NCBI GenBank assembly: GCA_942492095.1
Contig: CALODC010000009.1
Span: 45,066-109,065, forward strand
Source: an uncultured Flavobacteriaceae bacterium
GTDB lineage: Bacteria > Bacteroidota > Bacteroidia > Flavobacteriales > Flavobacteriaceae
Length of the DNA stretch: 64,000 bases
Reading direction: 5' to 3'
A program made the translations under genes and the position numbers. The notes beneath the pieces were generated by a model. That model saw only the letters and a list, made by a program, of their open reading frames with translations, made no database searches and was not told where the DNA came from. Positions 15,102 to 36,194 of this stretch are shown here, in pieces (the stretch's first letter is position 1; each line of letters opens with the position of its first letter).

Positions 15102-16439
15102 ATGAAAAGAAGAGAATTTTTGAAGAATACGGCGGTGGCCTCCTCGGTCTCCCTGTTACCTTCCACTATGTGGGGAATACATCAGGATAAAAAATTGCGC
15201 ACTGCCCATATTGGGGTTGGGGGAATGGGGGCAGAAGATCTGAAATCTGTTTCCTCGCATCAGAAAGTAGAGGTGGTTGCTCTCTGCGATGTAGACTCCA
15301 ACAATTTAGAAGCAGCCAAACTTCTTCATCCAAATGCCAGGATTTTTGCGGATTACCGAATGCTCTTTTCAGAAATGGCAAATGAGATAGACGCAGTGAT
15401 CGTCTCCACGCCAGATCATACACATGCACCTGCTTCCATGCTGGCCATGCAATTAAATAAACCTGTTTATTGCCAGAAGCCACTGGCCCATCATGTATCA
15501 GAAGTGAGAGCTATGCGAAAGCTTGCTGAGGAGAAAAATCTGATCACTCAGATGGGGATACAGGTTCATTCATTTTACGATTATAAATTAGCAACATTAC
15601 TGATACAATCCGGAATTATTGGGAAGGTTTCCTGTGTACGGGCATGGTCTCCCAAGAATTGGGGTTACGATGGACCGGCACCCACAGGAACCGATCCTAT
15701 CCCTGCTAATCTGGACTGGAATTTATGGTTGGGCACTTCGGCAACCCGGCCCTACAAAGATCAGGTTTACCATCCTGCCAACTGGCGAAAATTGTTAGAT
15801 TTTGGCTGTGGTACCCTGGGAGATATGGGGGTACATATTTTTGATACGCCTTATAATGCTCTACAGCTAGATGTGCCTTTTACAGTTAAGAACAAATGCC
15901 GTAGACCTAATGGGTTTGGGTATCCTGAGAAAAATACAGTCACCTATGAATTTCCCGCTACGCCCTATACGACTGAGACTTTGAAATGGGTATGGTACGA
16001 CGGGAAAGGAGCCCCAGCAATGCATAAAGATTTAAAATTACCCAACAACGAAAAACTCCCACTACAAGGAGCCATGTTTATTGGTGAAAAAGGAAGATTA
16101 CTTTTGCCCCATTTTATGGAGTTGCCCAGACTTATTGTAGACGGTGAATACAAAGAAATAGACATAAGTCCGTTTGAACAATCTGGCCAAATAGGGGAAC
16201 CAGTCAGAGACTACGATTTGGAAGGGCATAAGCACTATCACCAGTTTGTGGACGCCTGTTTGGGAACTGATACGTGTACAGCACCGTTTTCGTATGCTGC
16301 CCGTCTAACAGAAACCATACTATTGGGAGTCATTGCGGGCCAATTTCCGAACAAAAAATTACACTGGGATGATACAACAGCCCAGTTTAAGGAAGCAAAA
16401 GCCAACAAATATCTGGCAGGGAATTATCGCGATTTTTAG
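15102..16439 (+). CDS. Gfo/Idh/MocA-family oxidoreductase with twin-arginine (Tat) signal
   Basis: MKRREFLKNTAVASS Tat motif. Rossmann start LRTAHIGVGGMGAED. EKPLA-like motif in CQKPLAHH. Confidence 0.85.
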   Translation: MKRREFLKNTAVASSVSLLPSTMWGIHQDKKLRTAHIGVGGMGAEDLKSVSSHQKVEVVALCDVDSNNLEAAKLLHPNARIFADYRMLFSEMANEIDAVIVSTPDHTHAPASMLAMQLNKPVYCQKPLAHHVSEVRAMRKLAEEKNLITQMGIQVHSFYDYKLATLLIQSGIIGKVSCVRAWSPKNWGYDGPAPTGTDPIPANLDWNLWLGTSATRPYKDQVYHPANWRKLLDFGCGTLGDMGVHIFDTPYNALQLDVPFTVKNKCRRPNGFGYPEKNTVTYEFPATPYTTETLKWVWYDGKGAPAMHKDLKLPNNEKLPLQGAMFIGEKGRLLLPHFMELPRLIVDGEYKEIDISPFEQSGQIGEPVRDYDLEGHKHYHQFVDACLGTDTCTAPFSYAARLTETILLGVIAGQFPNKKLHWDDTTAQFKEAKANKYLAGNYRDF

Positions 16440-31064: not shown

Positions 31065-31330
31065 ATGATCCTTAATTCTGAAGTAAAAATACACATTGTG
31101 CCATAAAAAAGACGACTGGCAAAGAAGCTTTATTTCTTCTAAATTAAACAGATCAGAAAAGGTGTTAATGCTGCTATCTTATTTCCATTATTACAGAATC
31201 CTCAGTAAAAACAGATCTGAGAAAAAAAATCCGCAGTTATTTCTCAATATTCATCAACATTCAAAAAAATAAATCCATAAAGGCGCATTTTTCAATTTAA
31301 TAATTACCTTAGCCTGAGGTTTTAAAGATC

Positions 31331-31402
31331 ATGACAAACAATTATTTCTGGAGCGGTTTCTATTTTTACTTCTTTAACAAAAGAGGCAAGGGACTGTTAT
31401 AG
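31331..31402 (+). CDS. Putative aromatic-rich leader peptide MTNNYFWSGFYFYFFNKRGKGLL
   Basis: 23-codon ATG ORF in which 9 of 11 consecutive codons are Phe/Tyr/Trp. It is followed by a terminator and the aromatic amino-acid biosynthesis operon. Confidence 0.6.
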   Translation: MTNNYFWSGFYFYFFNKRGKGLL

Positions 31403-31427
31403 CTAATTGTGAAACGATAACTATAGA

Positions 31428-31456
31428 AGTCCCGTAGAAAACGGGACTTTTTTTTT
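31428..31456 (+). terminator. Intrinsic terminator (attenuator) directly upstream of pheA
   Basis: AGTCCCGT (31428-31435) / ACGGGACT (31441-31448), loop AGAAA, T8 at 31449-31456. The 5' arm can alternatively pair with GGGACT at 31390-31395. Confidence 0.75.
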
Positions 31457-32296
31457 GTGACCATTAAAGTGAAAAAAAGGATAGCCATACAGGGAATTCA
31501 GGGATCGAACCATCACCAGGTTGCTCGTGAGTATTTTGGTGACAACATAGAGCTGGTAGAGTGTATGTCTTTTCATGGCTTGGTAGACCAATTACTAGAT
31601 GGCCGTGCAGATAAAGGGGTAATGGCCATCGAGAATTCTATCGCCGGCTCCATAATTCCCAATTACGCCCTGGTCTATGAAAATAACCTGCATATCATAG
31701 GGGAGTACTATCTGAATATACATCACAACTTAATGGCGTTAGAAGGTCAAACCCTTGCAGATATAAAAGAGGTTCGTTCACATCCCATGGCCCTGTTACA
31801 ATGCCGTGAATACCTAAAAACTCAGGTGCATATTAAGATGGTGGAGGATGTGGATACCGCTGAAACGGCAAAGCGTATTCAGGATCAGCAATTAAAGGGA
31901 GTAGCGGCTATTGCTCCCGCCGCAGCGGCTGAATTGTTTAAATTGCAGATCATCGCACCCGAAATTCAGACCATAAAAAACAACGCCACCCGCTTTATCA
32001 TAGTAAAAATAACAAATAAGGAACTACCGAAGGAAGAGATCAACAAAGCGTCCATACGGTTTATTACAGATCACAAAAGGGGTAGTTTGGCAACTGTGTT
32101 AAATGTTATGAGCGACTGTTATTTAAATCTGACCAAAATACAGAGTTTACCCATAATAGAGACGCCATGGAAGTACGCCTTTTTTGTAGATGTTACCTTC
32201 GATAAGTACGAGTACTTTGAAAAGGCAAAGTCGCTTCTCCGGATAATGTCGGAGGATTTTAAGGTTTTGGGAGAATATAAAAATGTGATGGTATGA
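31457..32296 (+). CDS. pheA: Prephenate dehydratase (PDT + ACT domains, no chorismate mutase domain)
   Basis: IAIQGIQGSNHH, TRFIIV and the ACT region GSLATVLNVM. GTG start at 31457 (alternative GTG at 31469). Confidence 0.88.
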   Translation: MTIKVKKRIAIQGIQGSNHHQVAREYFGDNIELVECMSFHGLVDQLLDGRADKGVMAIENSIAGSIIPNYALVYENNLHIIGEYYLNIHHNLMALEGQTLADIKEVRSHPMALLQCREYLKTQVHIKMVEDVDTAETAKRIQDQQLKGVAAIAPAAAAELFKLQIIAPEIQTIKNNATRFIIVKITNKELPKEEINKASIRFITDHKRGSLATVLNVMSDCYLNLTKIQSLPIIETPWKYAFFVDVTFDKYEYFEKAKSLLRIMSEDFKVLGEYKNVMV

Positions 32297-33450
32297 TTAA
32301 GACGGCAGAAAGGCTGACTACCATAGAAGAATACTACTTCTCCAGGAAACTAAGGGAAGTAAGAGGGCTTATGGCCAAAGGCAGGCCAATAATTAATATG
32401 GGAATTGGGAGTCCGGATCTATCTCCATCTAAGGAGGTGTTGCAGACAATGCAGAACGCCCTGAATGATCAGGGAGCCCACCAATATCAAAGTTATCAGG
32501 GCTTACCAGCCTTGAGGTTAGCAATTGCGGATTTTTATAAGGAAAAGTTTGGTGTCCTTGCAGATCCTGAGCATGAGATTCTGCCTCTTATGGGGTCTAA
32601 GGAAGGAATCATGCACATAAGCATGGCCTTTCTGAATCCGGGTGATCAGGCATTGATCCCCAATCCGGGATATCCAACCTATCAGGCGGTCACAAAATTA
32701 ATTGGTGCAGTACCCCGCAGTTATGATCTTTTAGAAGAAAACAATTGGTTTCCGGATCTTGAGAAGCTGGCCTCTGAAGATCTTTCTAGCGTAAAACTAA
32801 TGTGGGTAAGCTATCCTCATATGCCAACGGGGGCTACGGCTTCTTTTGAAAAATTGAGAGATTTAATAGCCTTTGCCAAAAAGCATTCTATCCTATTGGT
32901 CAATGACAATCCATACAGCTTTGTATTAGGGAACCACCCTACCAGCATTCTGGAAATTGAAGGGGCCAAAGAGGTGGCGCTAGAATTGAATTCTTTGAGT
33001 AAGACCTTTAATATGGCAGGATGGCGAGTAGGCATGGTGCTTGGCAAAAAAGAACACATTGAGGCAGTTTTAAAGGTAAAAAGCAATATGGATTCCGGGA
33101 TGTTTTACGGAATACAAAAAGGAGCGATTGCAGCCCTGCAGAGCGGTAAAGCCTGGTTCGAGGAATTAGATGCCGTATACAGGCAGCGAAGAAAGCGAAT
33201 GTTTCAACTCGTAACTTTATTGCAATGCACCTTTGATCCGGACGCCGTAGGTATGTTTGTATGGGCAAAGTTGCCAAAAGGCTCAAAATCGTCAGAAGAA
33301 TTCATAGATGAGATACTGCATACCAGGGATATTTTTATTGCCCCGGGCACCATTTTTGGAAGTAACGGAGAAGGATATATACGTTTTTCTCTTTGCGTAA
33401 CTGCCGAAAAGATTGAAGAGGCAATAGCGCGTTTTAAAAAACAGGGATGA
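32293..33450 (+). CDS. Class I/II PLP-dependent aminotransferase (probable aromatic/prephenate aminotransferase)
   Basis: PLP-lysine context NSLSKTFNMAGWRVG. ATGA overlap with pheA and with the next gene. Confidence 0.85.
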   Translation: MIKTAERLTTIEEYYFSRKLREVRGLMAKGRPIINMGIGSPDLSPSKEVLQTMQNALNDQGAHQYQSYQGLPALRLAIADFYKEKFGVLADPEHEILPLMGSKEGIMHISMAFLNPGDQALIPNPGYPTYQAVTKLIGAVPRSYDLLEENNWFPDLEKLASEDLSSVKLMWVSYPHMPTGATASFEKLRDLIAFAKKHSILLVNDNPYSFVLGNHPTSILEIEGAKEVALELNSLSKTFNMAGWRVGMVLGKKEHIEAVLKVKSNMDSGMFYGIQKGAIAALQSGKAWFEELDAVYRQRRKRMFQLVTLLQCTFDPDAVGMFVWAKLPKGSKSSEEFIDEILHTRDIFIAPGTIFGSNGEGYIRFSLCVTAEKIEEAIARFKKQG

Positions 33451-34307
33451 AAATAGGAATCATAGGAATCGGATTAATTGGAGGCTCATTTGCTAAGGAC
33501 CTTAAAAAGGTGTACACCAGTGTACATATCATTGGGTTGGATGCAAATGAGGCACATCTGGAAACAGCCTTGGAGCTTGGAATTATAGATGCCAAAGGAG
33601 ATGAGCGTTCAATAAAGGAAGTAGACATTCTATTTCTGACGATTCCTGTAGATGCTGCTGTTAATACCTTGCCGGGAATGCTCGATATCATTGAGGACGA
33701 AACCTTAATAATCGATGCCGGTTCTACCAAGGCATTGATCTGTTCAAATGTTAGGTCTCATCCAAAAAGAAGAAATTTTCTGGCTTGTCATCCCATAGCC
33801 GGTACAGAATTTTCAGGACCATCGGCGGCCATCGAAGGACTATTTGAAGGGAAGACCAATATCATTTGCGAAGTAGAGAAGACAGCCTTTAAATTACAGG
33901 AAAAGGCATTGGAGATCTTTCAGAAGTTGGGAATGCGTATCCGGTATATGAATCCGGAAGCACATGACAAACATATCGCCTATGTATCTCATTTATCGCA
34001 CATAAGTTCATTTATGCTCGGGAAAACCGTGATCGAAAAGGAAAAAAATGAACGCGATATCTTTGACATGGCAGGGAGTGGTTTTGAAAGTACGGTGCGT
34101 CTCGCCAAGAGTTCCCCGGCGATGTGGACGCCCATATTTGATCAGAACAAAGAGAATGTCATTGAAACCCTCGAAGAATACATTCAGAATTTAGAGGCTT
34201 TTAAACAAAAGTTGAAAGATGACGATCTCGAAGGTATATTTAAAGACATGCAGGATACAAATAAAATCAAGGAAATATTAAAAGGAATACCCCTCAACAA
34301 ATTATAA
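33447..34307 (+). CDS. tyrA: Prephenate dehydrogenase
   Basis: MKIGIIGIGLIGGSFA Rossmann motif, HPIAGTEFSGP, HDKHIAYVSHLSH. Confidence 0.88.
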   Translation: MKIGIIGIGLIGGSFAKDLKKVYTSVHIIGLDANEAHLETALELGIIDAKGDERSIKEVDILFLTIPVDAAVNTLPGMLDIIEDETLIIDAGSTKALICSNVRSHPKRRNFLACHPIAGTEFSGPSAAIEGLFEGKTNIICEVEKTAFKLQEKALEIFQKLGMRIRYMNPEAHDKHIAYVSHLSHISSFMLGKTVIEKEKNERDIFDMAGSGFESTVRLAKSSPAMWTPIFDQNKENVIETLEEYIQNLEAFKQKLKDDDLEGIFKDMQDTNKIKEILKGIPLNKL

Positions 34308-34314
34308 GGACATT

Positions 34315-35397
34315 ATGGAAAATTCGAAGGATTTACGAAACTGGTTAGATAAAATGGAGCTCTCCCACCCTTTGGTGATCGCGGGTCCCTGTAGTGCAGA
34401 AACTGAAGCACAGGTACTCCAGATAGCCCATGAATTGAAAGACACGGACGTTAACTACTACCGTGCCGGGATTTGGAAACCACGTACGCGCCCCGGTAAT
34501 TTCGAAGGGGTAGGGGCCATTGGTTTAAAATGGTTGCAGCAGGTAAAAAAAGAAACCGGATTAAAGACGGCCACCGAGGTAGCTAACAGGGCGCATGTAG
34601 ACCTTGCCCTGGAACACGACATTGACCTCTTGTGGATAGGAGCCCGCTCTACTGTGAGTCCGTTTATTGTACAGGAAATAGCAGATGCTTTAAAGGGGAC
34701 AGACAAGGTTGTCTTGATAAAAAACCCCGTAAACCCGGATCTCTCCTTGTGGTTAGGCGCAGTAGAAAGACTCTATTCTGCAGATATTAAGAACCTGGGG
34801 GTTATCCATCGCGGCTTTTCGACCTATGAGAAATCGAAGTACAGAAATATTCCGGAATGGCAATTGGCCATAGAACTGCAAACCAAGTTCCCCGATCTGC
34901 CACTGATCAATGATCCATCTCATATCACAGGGAAAAGGGATATGATCTTTGATGTTTCTCAAACCGCACTGGACCTGAATTTTGACGGACTTATGATTGA
35001 GACCCATTTTGATCCGGACAATGCCTGGAGTGATGCTGCACAGCAAGTAACCCCAAAAAGACTGATACAGATCATGAACGATTTAAAAATTAGAAAAGAA
35101 ACAGACCAGGAAGCAGAATACAACAATAAACTTAGCAACCTAAGGGCACAGATCGATATTATAGATAATCAACTGATTGATATTCTAGGTAAGCGTATGC
35201 TTGTTTCTAATGGGATTGGAGAATTAAAGAAACAACGCAATGTGGCCGTACTTCAAACAAATCGATGGAATGCCATTCTCGGGAAAATGATCCTGGAAGG
35301 TGAGGCGAAAGGTCTGAGCGAAGAATTTGTCTTAAAAATGTTTAAGGCCATTCACCAGGAATCTATTAACCATCAGGAAAAAATAATTAACGCATAA
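34315..35397 (+). CDS. Bifunctional 3-deoxy-7-phosphoheptulonate (DAHP) synthase type I-beta / chorismate mutase
   Basis: KDO8PS-like DAHPS core (IAGPCSAE, RAGIWKPRT, NDPSH) with a C-terminal AroQ chorismate mutase (LRAQIDIIDNQLIDILGKR). Confidence 0.88.
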   Translation: MENSKDLRNWLDKMELSHPLVIAGPCSAETEAQVLQIAHELKDTDVNYYRAGIWKPRTRPGNFEGVGAIGLKWLQQVKKETGLKTATEVANRAHVDLALEHDIDLLWIGARSTVSPFIVQEIADALKGTDKVVLIKNPVNPDLSLWLGAVERLYSADIKNLGVIHRGFSTYEKSKYRNIPEWQLAIELQTKFPDLPLINDPSHITGKRDMIFDVSQTALDLNFDGLMIETHFDPDNAWSDAAQQVTPKRLIQIMNDLKIRKETDQEAEYNNKLSNLRAQIDIIDNQLIDILGKRMLVSNGIGELKKQRNVAVLQTNRWNAILGKMILEGEAKGLSEEFVLKMFKAIHQESINHQEKIINA

Positions 35398-35465
35398 TTA
35401 TTTTCCTGCATAGTGTAACATTTTAAGTGATCAATTGTCTTTATCAAAACACTAATAAACATCTT

Positions 35466-36140
35466 ATGAAAAAATTACTATTGTTCGCATTTGTACTGGT
35501 AGCCGTAAATTCTTTTGCCCAGCGCATTGTAGATAAAGAAGTTGGAGACTTTAACGAGATAAAGGTCTTTGACCTGATCGAAGTGAACCTGATCAAGGCA
35601 GATGAAAATCGTATTTTAATTAAAGGAGACCATGTAGACGACATCCAATTTGTCAATAAGGACGGCGTCTTAAAACTAAGGATGCAACTCGAAAAAAAGT
35701 TTCAGGGAGAAGATACGCTGATAGAGGTGTATTACACAGATATTGATATTATTGACGGAAATGAAGGCGCCCAGATCGTATGCAATGAAACTGTGGCGAA
35801 AGACGCCATCACCGTGAAGGTGCAGGAAGGGGCCCAGGTGAAAATAGGGATGGACGTTAGGCAATTAGATGCCCGAGCCGTTACAGGTGGTATTATTGAA
35901 GCCTCAGGCGTAGCAAAGAATCAGGTGATCGTATTAAATACCGGTGGAATTTTTGAAGGTAGAGATTTAAAAACTGCCTATTCCTCCGTAAAAGTCAGTG
36001 CGGGGGGTGAAGCTACCCTCAGTGCTTCTGAAAAAGTTGATATCAATGTAAGAGCCGGTGGGGACGTGATCGTATACGGAAATCCAAAAGAAGTAAACAA
36101 GAATACCCTTGCCGGGGGTCGCATTTTCATTAAGGATTAG
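35466..36140 (+). CDS. DUF2807 / head-GIN domain protein (secreted)
   Basis: Start at MKKLLLFAFVLVAVNSFAQ (ATG at 35466). Repeated beta-helix-like segments, as in the paralogue at 8780..9541. Confidence 0.65.
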   Translation: MKKLLLFAFVLVAVNSFAQRIVDKEVGDFNEIKVFDLIEVNLIKADENRILIKGDHVDDIQFVNKDGVLKLRMQLEKKFQGEDTLIEVYYTDIDIIDGNEGAQIVCNETVAKDAITVKVQEGAQVKIGMDVRQLDARAVTGGIIEASGVAKNQVIVLNTGGIFEGRDLKTAYSSVKVSAGGEATLSASEKVDINVRAGGDVIVYGNPKEVNKNTLAGGRIFIKD

Positions 36141-36155
36141 CTAAATACAAACGGT

Positions 36156-36194
36156 AAAAAAAGCCCTGATCTGTTTGGATCAGGGCTTTTTTTT
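36156..36194. terminator. Bidirectional rho-independent terminator between convergent genes
   Basis: A-run 36156-36162, AGCCCTGATC (36162-36171) / GATCAGGGCT (36178-36187), a perfect 10-bp stem, then a T-run to 36194. Confidence 0.8.

Follow-up and report, generated by a model that had tools for sequence, protein, structure and literature searches.

Introduction

Transcription attenuation by a translating ribosome is a textbook mechanism. In Escherichia coli, the pheL leader is short and rich in Phe codons, and the attenuators of thr (Thr and Ile codons) and ilvGMEDA (Leu, Val and Ile codons) are multivalent. Here we describe an element that is ordinary of its kind in a 64,000-nucleotide (nt) stretch of DNA from an uncultured marine, Muriicola-like member of the Flavobacteriaceae (GenBank assembly GCA_942492095.1, contig CALODC010000009.1, positions 45,066 to 109,065 of the forward strand), which we call the window and number from its first letter. 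A short leader open reading frame (ORF) and a terminator in front of pheA very probably form a functional ribosome-mediated leader-peptide transcription attenuator of the Phe/Tyr operon.

Within the Bacteroidota, Vitreschak and colleagues are said to have proposed candidate Bacteroidetes/Chlorobi attenuators in an abstract of 2004 in FEMS Microbiol Lett. The Bacteroid-trp motif (RF01692) is a probable cis-regulatory RNA confined to Bacteroidetes (Weinberg et al. 2010, PMC2864571), and the short peptide listed for its operon is MNTFLNNTWWWNNLRQTS. The closest described system is that of Flavobacterium psychrophilum, in which Guérin et al. (2021, ISME Commun, PMC9723704) mapped transcription start sites (TSSs) and transcribed regions. 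There, the 5′ region of pheA-aspC3 is a separately quantified region of 171 nt (THC0290_N_0195, Table S7) that the authors label a ‘leader peptide attenuation element’, and SI Appendix D9 reports ‘putative terminator/anti-terminator hairpins’, condition-specific read-through and peak operon expression in minimal medium. The same study reports that the 5′ region and the coding region vary in abundance independently, that the TSS lies 6 nt beyond a TATGTTTG box, and that the element is conserved in other Flavobacteriaceae genera, the last point being noted, in the text consulted, without comparative or covariation analysis. The element type for this operon in this family is already published (Guérin et al. 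2021, PMC9723704). The initial annotation of the window had supposed that attenuation has scant experimental support in Bacteroidota; the TSS, the separate 5′ region and the minimal-medium read-through of the F. psychrophilum orthologue qualify this. In the searchable literature we found no test by mutation for the phylum, and no comparative or covariation work on the pheA element.

The window locus follows the logic of E. coli pheL-pheA, with the same target gene, the same 1:2, 2:3 and 3:4 helices and, directly in front of pheA, an intrinsic terminator. The E. coli leader has Phe codons only, and the one gene under its control is that of the bifunctional chorismate mutase/prephenate dehydratase, whereas the window has a mixed Phe/Tyr/Trp leader, an operon of four to five genes that includes tyrA and DAHP synthase and, apparently, a very short, Shine-Dalgarno-less 5′ untranslated region (UTR) before the leader. 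In a textbook comparison the leader resembles those of thr and ilvGMEDA in mixing codons for several end products of one pathway, but the amino acids, operons and phylum are different and there is no sequence relationship. Bacteroid-trp, the trp counterpart in the same phylum and on the same principle, serves another operon through WWW regulatory codons and matches nothing in either the window or the related loci.

Results

Anatomy of the leader region

The locus has the three parts of a leader-peptide attenuator: a 5′ leader ORF enriched in codons for the end products of the operon, an intrinsic terminator between this ORF and the first structural gene, and an antiterminator that excludes the terminator through a segment that would be hidden once the ribosome reaches the stop codon and exposed while it stalls (Table 1). 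From 31331 the codons read ATG ACA AAC AAT TAT TTC TGG AGC GGT TTC TAT TTT TAC TTC TTT AAC AAA AGA GGC AAG GGA CTG TTA TAG, and none of the other stop-free 11-codon windows in the six frames of the whole window (76,813 in all) is as dense in aromatic codons as the run within them. A consensus scan for terminators gave an 11-bp stem (31425-31451) with 5 G-C pairs, a 5-nt loop and a U-tract of about nine U. On re-reading, the ORF with its peptide, the composition of the aromatic run, and the terminator arms AGTCCCGT (31428-31435) and ACGGGACT (31441-31448) followed by T8 (31449-31456) all proved to have been placed exactly by the initial annotation, to which the scan adds the longer stem.

Table 1. 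Features of the pheA leader, the operon and its surroundings, in window coordinates.
Feature	Position	Strand	Basis
Leader ORF, 23 codons + TAG, peptide MTNNYFWSGFYFYFFNKRGKGLL*	31331..31402	+	sequence; homologous ORF in relatives
Regulatory codon cluster, proposed stall site	31343..31375	+	YFWSGFYFYFF, 9/11 aromatic (5 Phe, 3 Tyr, 1 Trp)
Segment 1, 5′ half of 1:2 hairpin, within ORF and overlapping aromatic codons	31338..31361	+	minimum free energy (MFE) fold; RNAalifold consensus helix, columns 30-53 / 63-84
Segment 2, GGGACUGUUAUAG, final ORF codons + stop; partner is segment 1 or segment 3	31390..31402	+	fold, covariation
Segment 3, CUAUAGAAGUCCCGU; terminator 5′ arm (31425-31435) and antiterminator 3′ arm (31421-31433)	31421..31435	+	terminator scan, fold, covariation
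Segment 4, ACGGGACUUUU, terminator 3′ arm, then U-tract to 31456	31441..31456	+	terminator scan, compensatory changes
pheA (prephenate dehydratase), first regulated gene	31469..32296	+	Pfam PDT (PF00800) 8e-57; likeliest start GTG 31469
Class I/II aminotransferase	32293-33450	+	domain search
Prephenate dehydrogenase (tyrA)	33447-34307	+	NF006307, above cut-off
DAHP synthase fused to chorismate mutase (aroG/CM)	34315-35397	+	domain search
DUF2807 gene, 3′ of DAHP synthase/chorismate mutase gene	35427-36140	+	domain search
Bidirectional terminator AAAGCCCTGATC....GATCAGGGCTTT, 12-13-bp stem	36160-36189	both	directly after DUF2807 gene
gldA, divergent upstream neighbor		-	TIGR03522, above cut-off
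Putative -7 promoter box TACCTTAG, variant of Bacteroidota TAnnTTTG	31305..31312	+	within conserved block ~31287-31314

The region 31325-31460 folds with -35.3 kcal/mol, compared with -22.9 ± 3.0 kcal/mol for shuffled sequences (z = -4.19), and none of 200 shuffles was equally stable. An automatic detector for an aromatic ORF followed by a terminator, run over both strands (128 kb), returned the true site and one false positive only. Because the 9-of-11 run is a unique maximum, the fold has this z-score and other detector matches are nearly absent, the pattern goes beyond chance. The second detector unit (16229-16054, minus strand) is a chance match that lies antisense inside a 445-amino-acid (aa) ORF (15102-16439, plus strand).

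Conservation and coding signature among relatives

A genome scan with PheA collected 80 loci, 77-92% identical to window PheA, from Muriicola, Eudoraea, Maribacter, Ulvibacterium, Poritiphilus, Pelagihabitans, Pseudozobellia, Allomuricauda, Aurantibacter and other genera; the 78 with enough upstream DNA, together with the window, make up a set of 79 sequences. All 79 have a leader ORF of 22-23 codons of the form M..(Q/N)YFWNGFYFYFFFKRGTGLL, followed in every case, 21-28 nt beyond the leader stop, by a G+C-rich hairpin and its T-run. The initial annotation had named an aromatic ORF plus terminator, with covariation, upstream of pheA orthologues as a check of its reading, and this is what the alignment gave. 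The spacing between terminator and pheA is highly variable among the relatives, and the conserved unit is therefore leader plus terminator rather than leader plus start codon.

The codons themselves were compared in 72 distinct coding rows. One aromatic column is occupied by TGG (48), TAT (16), TAC (1), TTT (5) and TTC (2), a further one by TAC (56), TTC (8) and TAT (7), and another by TTT (34) and TTC (33), so that synonymous TTT/TTC variation is common and Phe, Tyr and Trp replace one another through one or two base changes. The leader stop is at a fixed place as TAG (66), TGA (4) or TAA (2), and entropy by codon position is 0.39 for the first, 0.52 for the second and 0.80 for the third, the most variable. 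Because the aromatic residues are swapped, the stop codon varies and the third positions have the highest entropy, selection, as read from these sequences, is acting on the aromatic codons and the open frame and not on the nucleotide string.

The leaders almost invariably open with A-rich codons (MTKQ, MTRN, MNT, MTNK and similar; L001-L174). The leader peptide of the F. psychrophilum trp operon likewise starts MNTFLNNT... (Guérin et al., PMC9723704). Such starts may be a sign of initiation independent of a Shine-Dalgarno sequence, for which the start region has to be A-rich and unstructured.

Relationship to described families

The F. psychrophilum element occupies the same slot, between divergent gldA and pheA-aminotransferase, and also has a short ORF with tandem aromatic codons, there MNTNNTFYSNNSFYFYWNIGRDCYMVI. 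The blocks UUUUAYUUCU and AAGGGAYUGUUAUA can be aligned between the two, and segments 2/3/4 covary, reading GGGAUU / AAUCCC / GGGAUU in F. psychrophilum and GGGACU / AGUCCC / GGGACU in the window. The F. psychrophilum leader differs in having 27 codons instead of 23, a 1-nt indel that shifts the frame of the 3′ part of the ORF and makes the peptide tails unlike, and another promoter sequence; it is known by TSS and expression data, whereas the window element is known from sequence analysis. The synteny, the alignment and the Flavobacterium intermediates described below identify the window element as a further instance of the pheA 5′ element that Guérin et al. described for the Flavobacteriaceae.

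An Rfam scan, another check named by the initial annotation, was run and assigned no family: at gathering score Rfam 15, which includes Bacteroid-trp, T-box, riboswitches and PyrR, gave nothing at the element or in 20 representative related loci. The top match at the site was Phe_leader (RF01859), at 26.9 bits against a gathering score of 55 (E = 0.036). The resemblance stems from U-rich codons and a terminator, and the element is an analogue of that family, not a homologue. Other sub-threshold matches at the site, to Trp_leader (20.7 bits), PyrR (21.8 bits) and rimP on the opposite strand, were likewise rejected.

Alternative helices, covariation and a modeled ribosome

RNAalifold, applied to an alignment of 76 distinct Flavobacteriaceae sequences (A1), gave a consensus of two features: a long hairpin (1:2) that joins the stretch of aromatic codons to the ORF end, and the terminator (3:4). 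In the terminator 97.8% of the cells are paired and 25 are compensatory (C-G to U-A; U-A to A-U or C-G), and none of 500 shuffles was as good. The antiterminator (2:3; A1 columns 70-77 with 116-123) has 93.9% of its cells paired and 8 compensatory cells, again with 0 of 500 shuffles as good; G74 changes to A together with C119 to U in three sequences, and A70 to G together with U123 to C in four. When the antiterminator register is slid, pairing falls to 51% or less. The 1:2 hairpin is paired in 97.6% of cells, with variation mostly of C/U opposite G, and we regard this helix as plausible, not proven.

In the window, the antiterminator pairing of GGGACT (31390-31395) with AGTCCC (31428-31433) in the initial annotation holds. 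Its extension by GTTAT (31396-31400) with ATAAC (31417-31421) does not: it is possible, but the fold favors UUAUAG/CUAUAG, and the best antiterminator joins 31397-31402 with 31421-31426 to the first helix, for a total of -16.0 kcal/mol. The comparison of energies envisaged in the initial annotation shows balanced alternatives, with -15.5 kcal/mol for the terminator and -19.3 kcal/mol for the 1:2 hairpin (31335-31412), and the switch is thermodynamically feasible.

We modeled the ribosome by masking the first base of the A site plus 12 nt and folded all 76 sequences, taking as nascent RNA the transcript before segment 4 exists and as stall positions codons -14 to -8. With the modeled ribosome on any aromatic codon tested, the 2:3 antiterminator was present in the nascent RNA of all 76 sequences; with the ribosome on the stop codon, the antiterminator was present in none and the terminator in all 76. 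Without a ribosome, the full-length MFE structure contains the terminator in 74 of 76. Thus conservation, codon signature, covariation and switch geometry all agree in silico with a ribosome-mediated attenuator, the reading offered by the initial annotation.

Related elements in other lineages

A further profile search reached other genera and Chitinophaga, whose loci were then fetched. Flavobacterium spp. (L081-L084) have an intermediate form with the leader MASNRFYFSNNFYFFFSRSQDCAMVI and the segments CAGGAUUGU / ACAAUCCUG / CAGGAUU, a three-way compensatory change relative to both the window and F. psychrophilum. An aromatic leader and a terminator are also present in Lutibacter, Formosa, Gillisia, Cellulophaga and three further Flavobacteriales lineages, and there the 3′ end of the ORF is complementary to the terminator arm of its own locus even where the terminator sequence is unrelated. 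For example, CCGGAAGCGGCU serves as both segment 2 and segment 4 in a Flavobacteriales metagenome-assembled genome (L086), and in L094 GGCAGGACU pairs with AGUCCUGCC. Chitinophaga nivalis, of the class Chitinophagia, has two tandem units upstream of pheA (L085, 1142-1448), with the leaders MIQQATFGFFSFYYFWYQE and MMSPVNKNRYFFYYFSYFFYAKKPGTRLQ and one terminator each. Tandem double units also occur in L095-L113, L114, L115 and L139; with two attenuators in series, the repression ratios would be multiplied.

The Chitinophaga protein, used as the query of a further scan, brought up 80 Chitinophaga-related metagenome loci, 54-89% identical, of which 78 had usable upstream DNA. By the strict detector, 70 of these 78 have the aromatic leader and terminator, many of them with two units; some loci that the terminator detector missed (L117, L128, L130) were recovered by a covariance model (R1) built from the Flavobacteriaceae alignment only. 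Of 94 distant loci, 78 have an R1 match at E < 0.01 directly before pheA, including E of 0.004-0.009 for the four Flavobacterium loci, and its best off-target match in the window has E = 0.047. Among 103 non-redundant units, the segment 2:3 duplex was better than segment 2 shuffles in 99, and the unit's own terminator arm was preferred over the arms of other lineages in 96. Segment 2 lies at about -13 to -4 from the stop, where it would be masked by a terminating ribosome in all 103 units and free in all 103 with the ribosome at the start of the aromatic cluster.

Alternative explanations for the conserved leader

Alternative structures alone do not reveal what selects between them, and a real switch could be set by a trans-acting factor or ligand, such as a TRAP- or PyrR-like protein, a T-box-like tRNA contact or a Phe/Tyr riboswitch. 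A weak match to a PyrR site (21.8 bits, gathering 54, E = 1.8) and the still hypothetical nature of ribosome-polymerase coupling in the phylum would leave room for such control, which we nevertheless hold to be unlikely. A factor or ligand would not preserve an in-frame ATG, aromatic codons that swap among Phe, Tyr and Trp, and a stop positioned for the ribosome; RNAalifold gave no conserved aptamer-like structure beyond the three helices, and Rfam 15 gave no family at gathering score either here or in the 20 representative loci.

For leader ORFs near structural genes, in Bacteroidetes as well, a boost to translation through reinitiation has been suggested (PMC4833913), and the leader might act mainly on translation, by reinitiation or by opening the pheA start, with the hairpin as an mRNA-stabilizing or processing element. 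To this we give slightly less credence again. In the relatives the leader stop is 46-139 nt from the position of GTG 31457 and the true start is about 12 nt further, distances far above the reinitiation peak of 10-14 nt, and a G+C-rich stem with a U-tract stands between leader and pheA in every case. Moreover, the independent changes of 5′ region and coding region in F. psychrophilum (PMC9723704) point to termination.

We consider it very improbable that the product of the ORF is a small aromatic or hydrophobic peptide with a function of its own and that the hairpin is merely a (leaky) terminator without sensing. Short hydrophobic peptides can have function, and M..QYFWNGFYFYFFFKRGTGLL looks strongly conserved in about 10 genera. 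However, the KRGxGLL tail is explained by RNA pairing: its nucleotides AAGGGAYUGUUAUA are kept in F. psychrophilum in another frame, through the 1-nt indel, and give ...GRDCYMVI there. The leader 3′ end AAGGGAYTGTTATA (31386-31400 in the window) is likewise kept between the two although the frames differ. The tail is therefore conserved as RNA pairing and not for peptide function. Distant lineages share only the aromatic run, with unrelated N- and C-termini, the 3′ end of the ORF always matches the terminator arm of its own locus, and the element is always in front of pheA.

That a U-rich ORF and a terminator should lie together by accident in A+T-rich intergenic DNA, a view for which one might cite the A+T-rich genome, the frequency of TTT, TTC and TAT in non-coding frames and the false unit elsewhere in the window, has a negligible probability and is refuted by conservation in all 79 Flavobacteriaceae sequences, in other genera and in another class, besides the codon density, the fold z-score and the antisense position of that false unit given above.

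The operon, the pheA start and the upstream region

Domain searches bear out the assignment of the downstream genes to the synthesis of Phe and Tyr, giving a prephenate dehydratase, an aminotransferase, a prephenate dehydrogenase and a DAHP synthase/chorismate mutase, and from 32293 to 35397 the reading frames of the operon overlap or adjoin one another. The initial annotation had started pheA at GTG 31457, right after the T-run; this codon is in frame, but the conserved start position is GTG 31469. In all 75 related loci permitting the test, the start is kept four codons before IAIQG, and window PheA is 100% identical to a 275-aa NCBI Muriicola sp. protein whose length fits GTG 31469. Because of the conserved position and this length, the pheA start is most likely GTG 31469 and not 31457, which places it 12 nt beyond the U-tract. 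The bidirectional terminator is probably the 3′ end of the pheA operon, and the DUF2807 gene would then be its fifth co-transcribed gene. The presence of gldA points to a gliding flavobacterium.

Upstream of the leader, a block of about 25 nt that is conserved across genera (31287-31314, plus strand; TTTCAATTTAATAATTACCTTAGCC) holds the putative -7 box, with TTG about 19 nt upstream of the box in most relatives. In most of about 78 related loci the block TTTAATAATTACCTTAGCC keeps a constant spacing to the leader ATG. By analogy with the mapped F. psychrophilum TSS, transcription would start near 31318, about 13 nt upstream of the leader ATG. A sigma-70 scan of the plus strand upstream of the leader, which does not cover Bacteroidota promoters, gave no useful promoter. 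The conservation of block 31287-31314 exceeds the need of a promoter alone, and the block might also contain an operator.

Elsewhere in the window, a SAM riboswitch (RF00162; 82.8 bits, gathering 44.4) at 2669-2775 on the plus strand is the sole Rfam family at gathering level.

Discussion

We propose that the element works as follows. Transcription would begin about 13 nt upstream of the leader ATG, and a ribosome would translate the 23-codon leader behind the advancing RNA polymerase. When charged Phe-tRNA and Tyr-tRNA (and Trp-tRNA) are ample, the ribosome would reach the stop codon at 31400-31402 and cover segment 2; the 3:4 terminator (31425-31451 plus U-tract) would form, and the transcript would end near 31455 with a length of about 138 nt. 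When charged aromatic tRNA is scarce, the ribosome would stall within 31343-31375, occupying segment 1 and leaving segment 2 free, so that 31390-31402 would pair with the emerging 31421-31433, no terminator would form and polymerase would read through into pheA, the aminotransferase gene, tyrA and aroG/CM. If the leader is not translated, the 1:2 hairpin would sequester segment 2 and the terminator would form, making off the default state. Control is probably multivalent: Phe and Tyr codons stand beside one Trp codon in the leader, and the operon serves the synthesis of both Phe and Tyr and includes the entry enzyme of the common pathway.

Several points weigh against a functional attenuator. 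The evidence for it in this organism consists of sequence, comparison and folding, and the covariation counts come from related sequences, in which one inherited change is counted several times. In alignment A1, the covariation of the 1:2 hairpin showed no excess over shuffles or over column composition. After segment 4 has been made, equilibrium favors the terminator in 48-68 of the 76 sequences even with a stalled ribosome, and the decision of the switch must therefore be kinetic, as it also is in classical attenuators. In untranslated nascent RNA, the MFE structure pairs segment 2 with segment 3 in 49 of 76 sequences and with segment 1 in 23; the off state would therefore depend on the order of co-transcriptional folding and not on equilibrium, and this untranslated off state is the weakest step of the model. 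Finally, the mechanism requires a close coupling of transcription and translation that is still hypothetical in Bacteroidota, and translation of the leader would have to begin, with no Shine-Dalgarno sequence, behind a 5′ UTR of about 13 nt.

As to its wider relationships, we favor by a little the view that the element belongs to a phylum-wide, uncurated family of multivalent Phe/Tyr(/Trp) attenuators that precede pheA operons in Flavobacteriia and Chitinophagia and are in tandem in Chitinophaga-type genomes. A ready seed for such an RNA family is at hand in the alignment of 76 Flavobacteriaceae sequences, together with the working covariance model and the roughly 100 non-redundant units from two classes. 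For annotation, the element accounts for a 375-nt ‘empty’ intergenic region and corrects the pheA start.

On this model, starvation for Phe or Tyr would switch on pheA, the aminotransferase gene, tyrA and aroG/CM together. If the mechanism is as proposed, it would imply tight coupling between the pioneer ribosome and RNA polymerase as well as efficient initiation on very short leaders, and the element would be a natural reporter for coupling in a phylum largely without Shine-Dalgarno-led initiation. These results leave current understanding in place and bear on transcription-translation coupling in a Shine-Dalgarno-poor phylum; they suggest that ribosome-sensed attenuation is routine in Bacteroidota.

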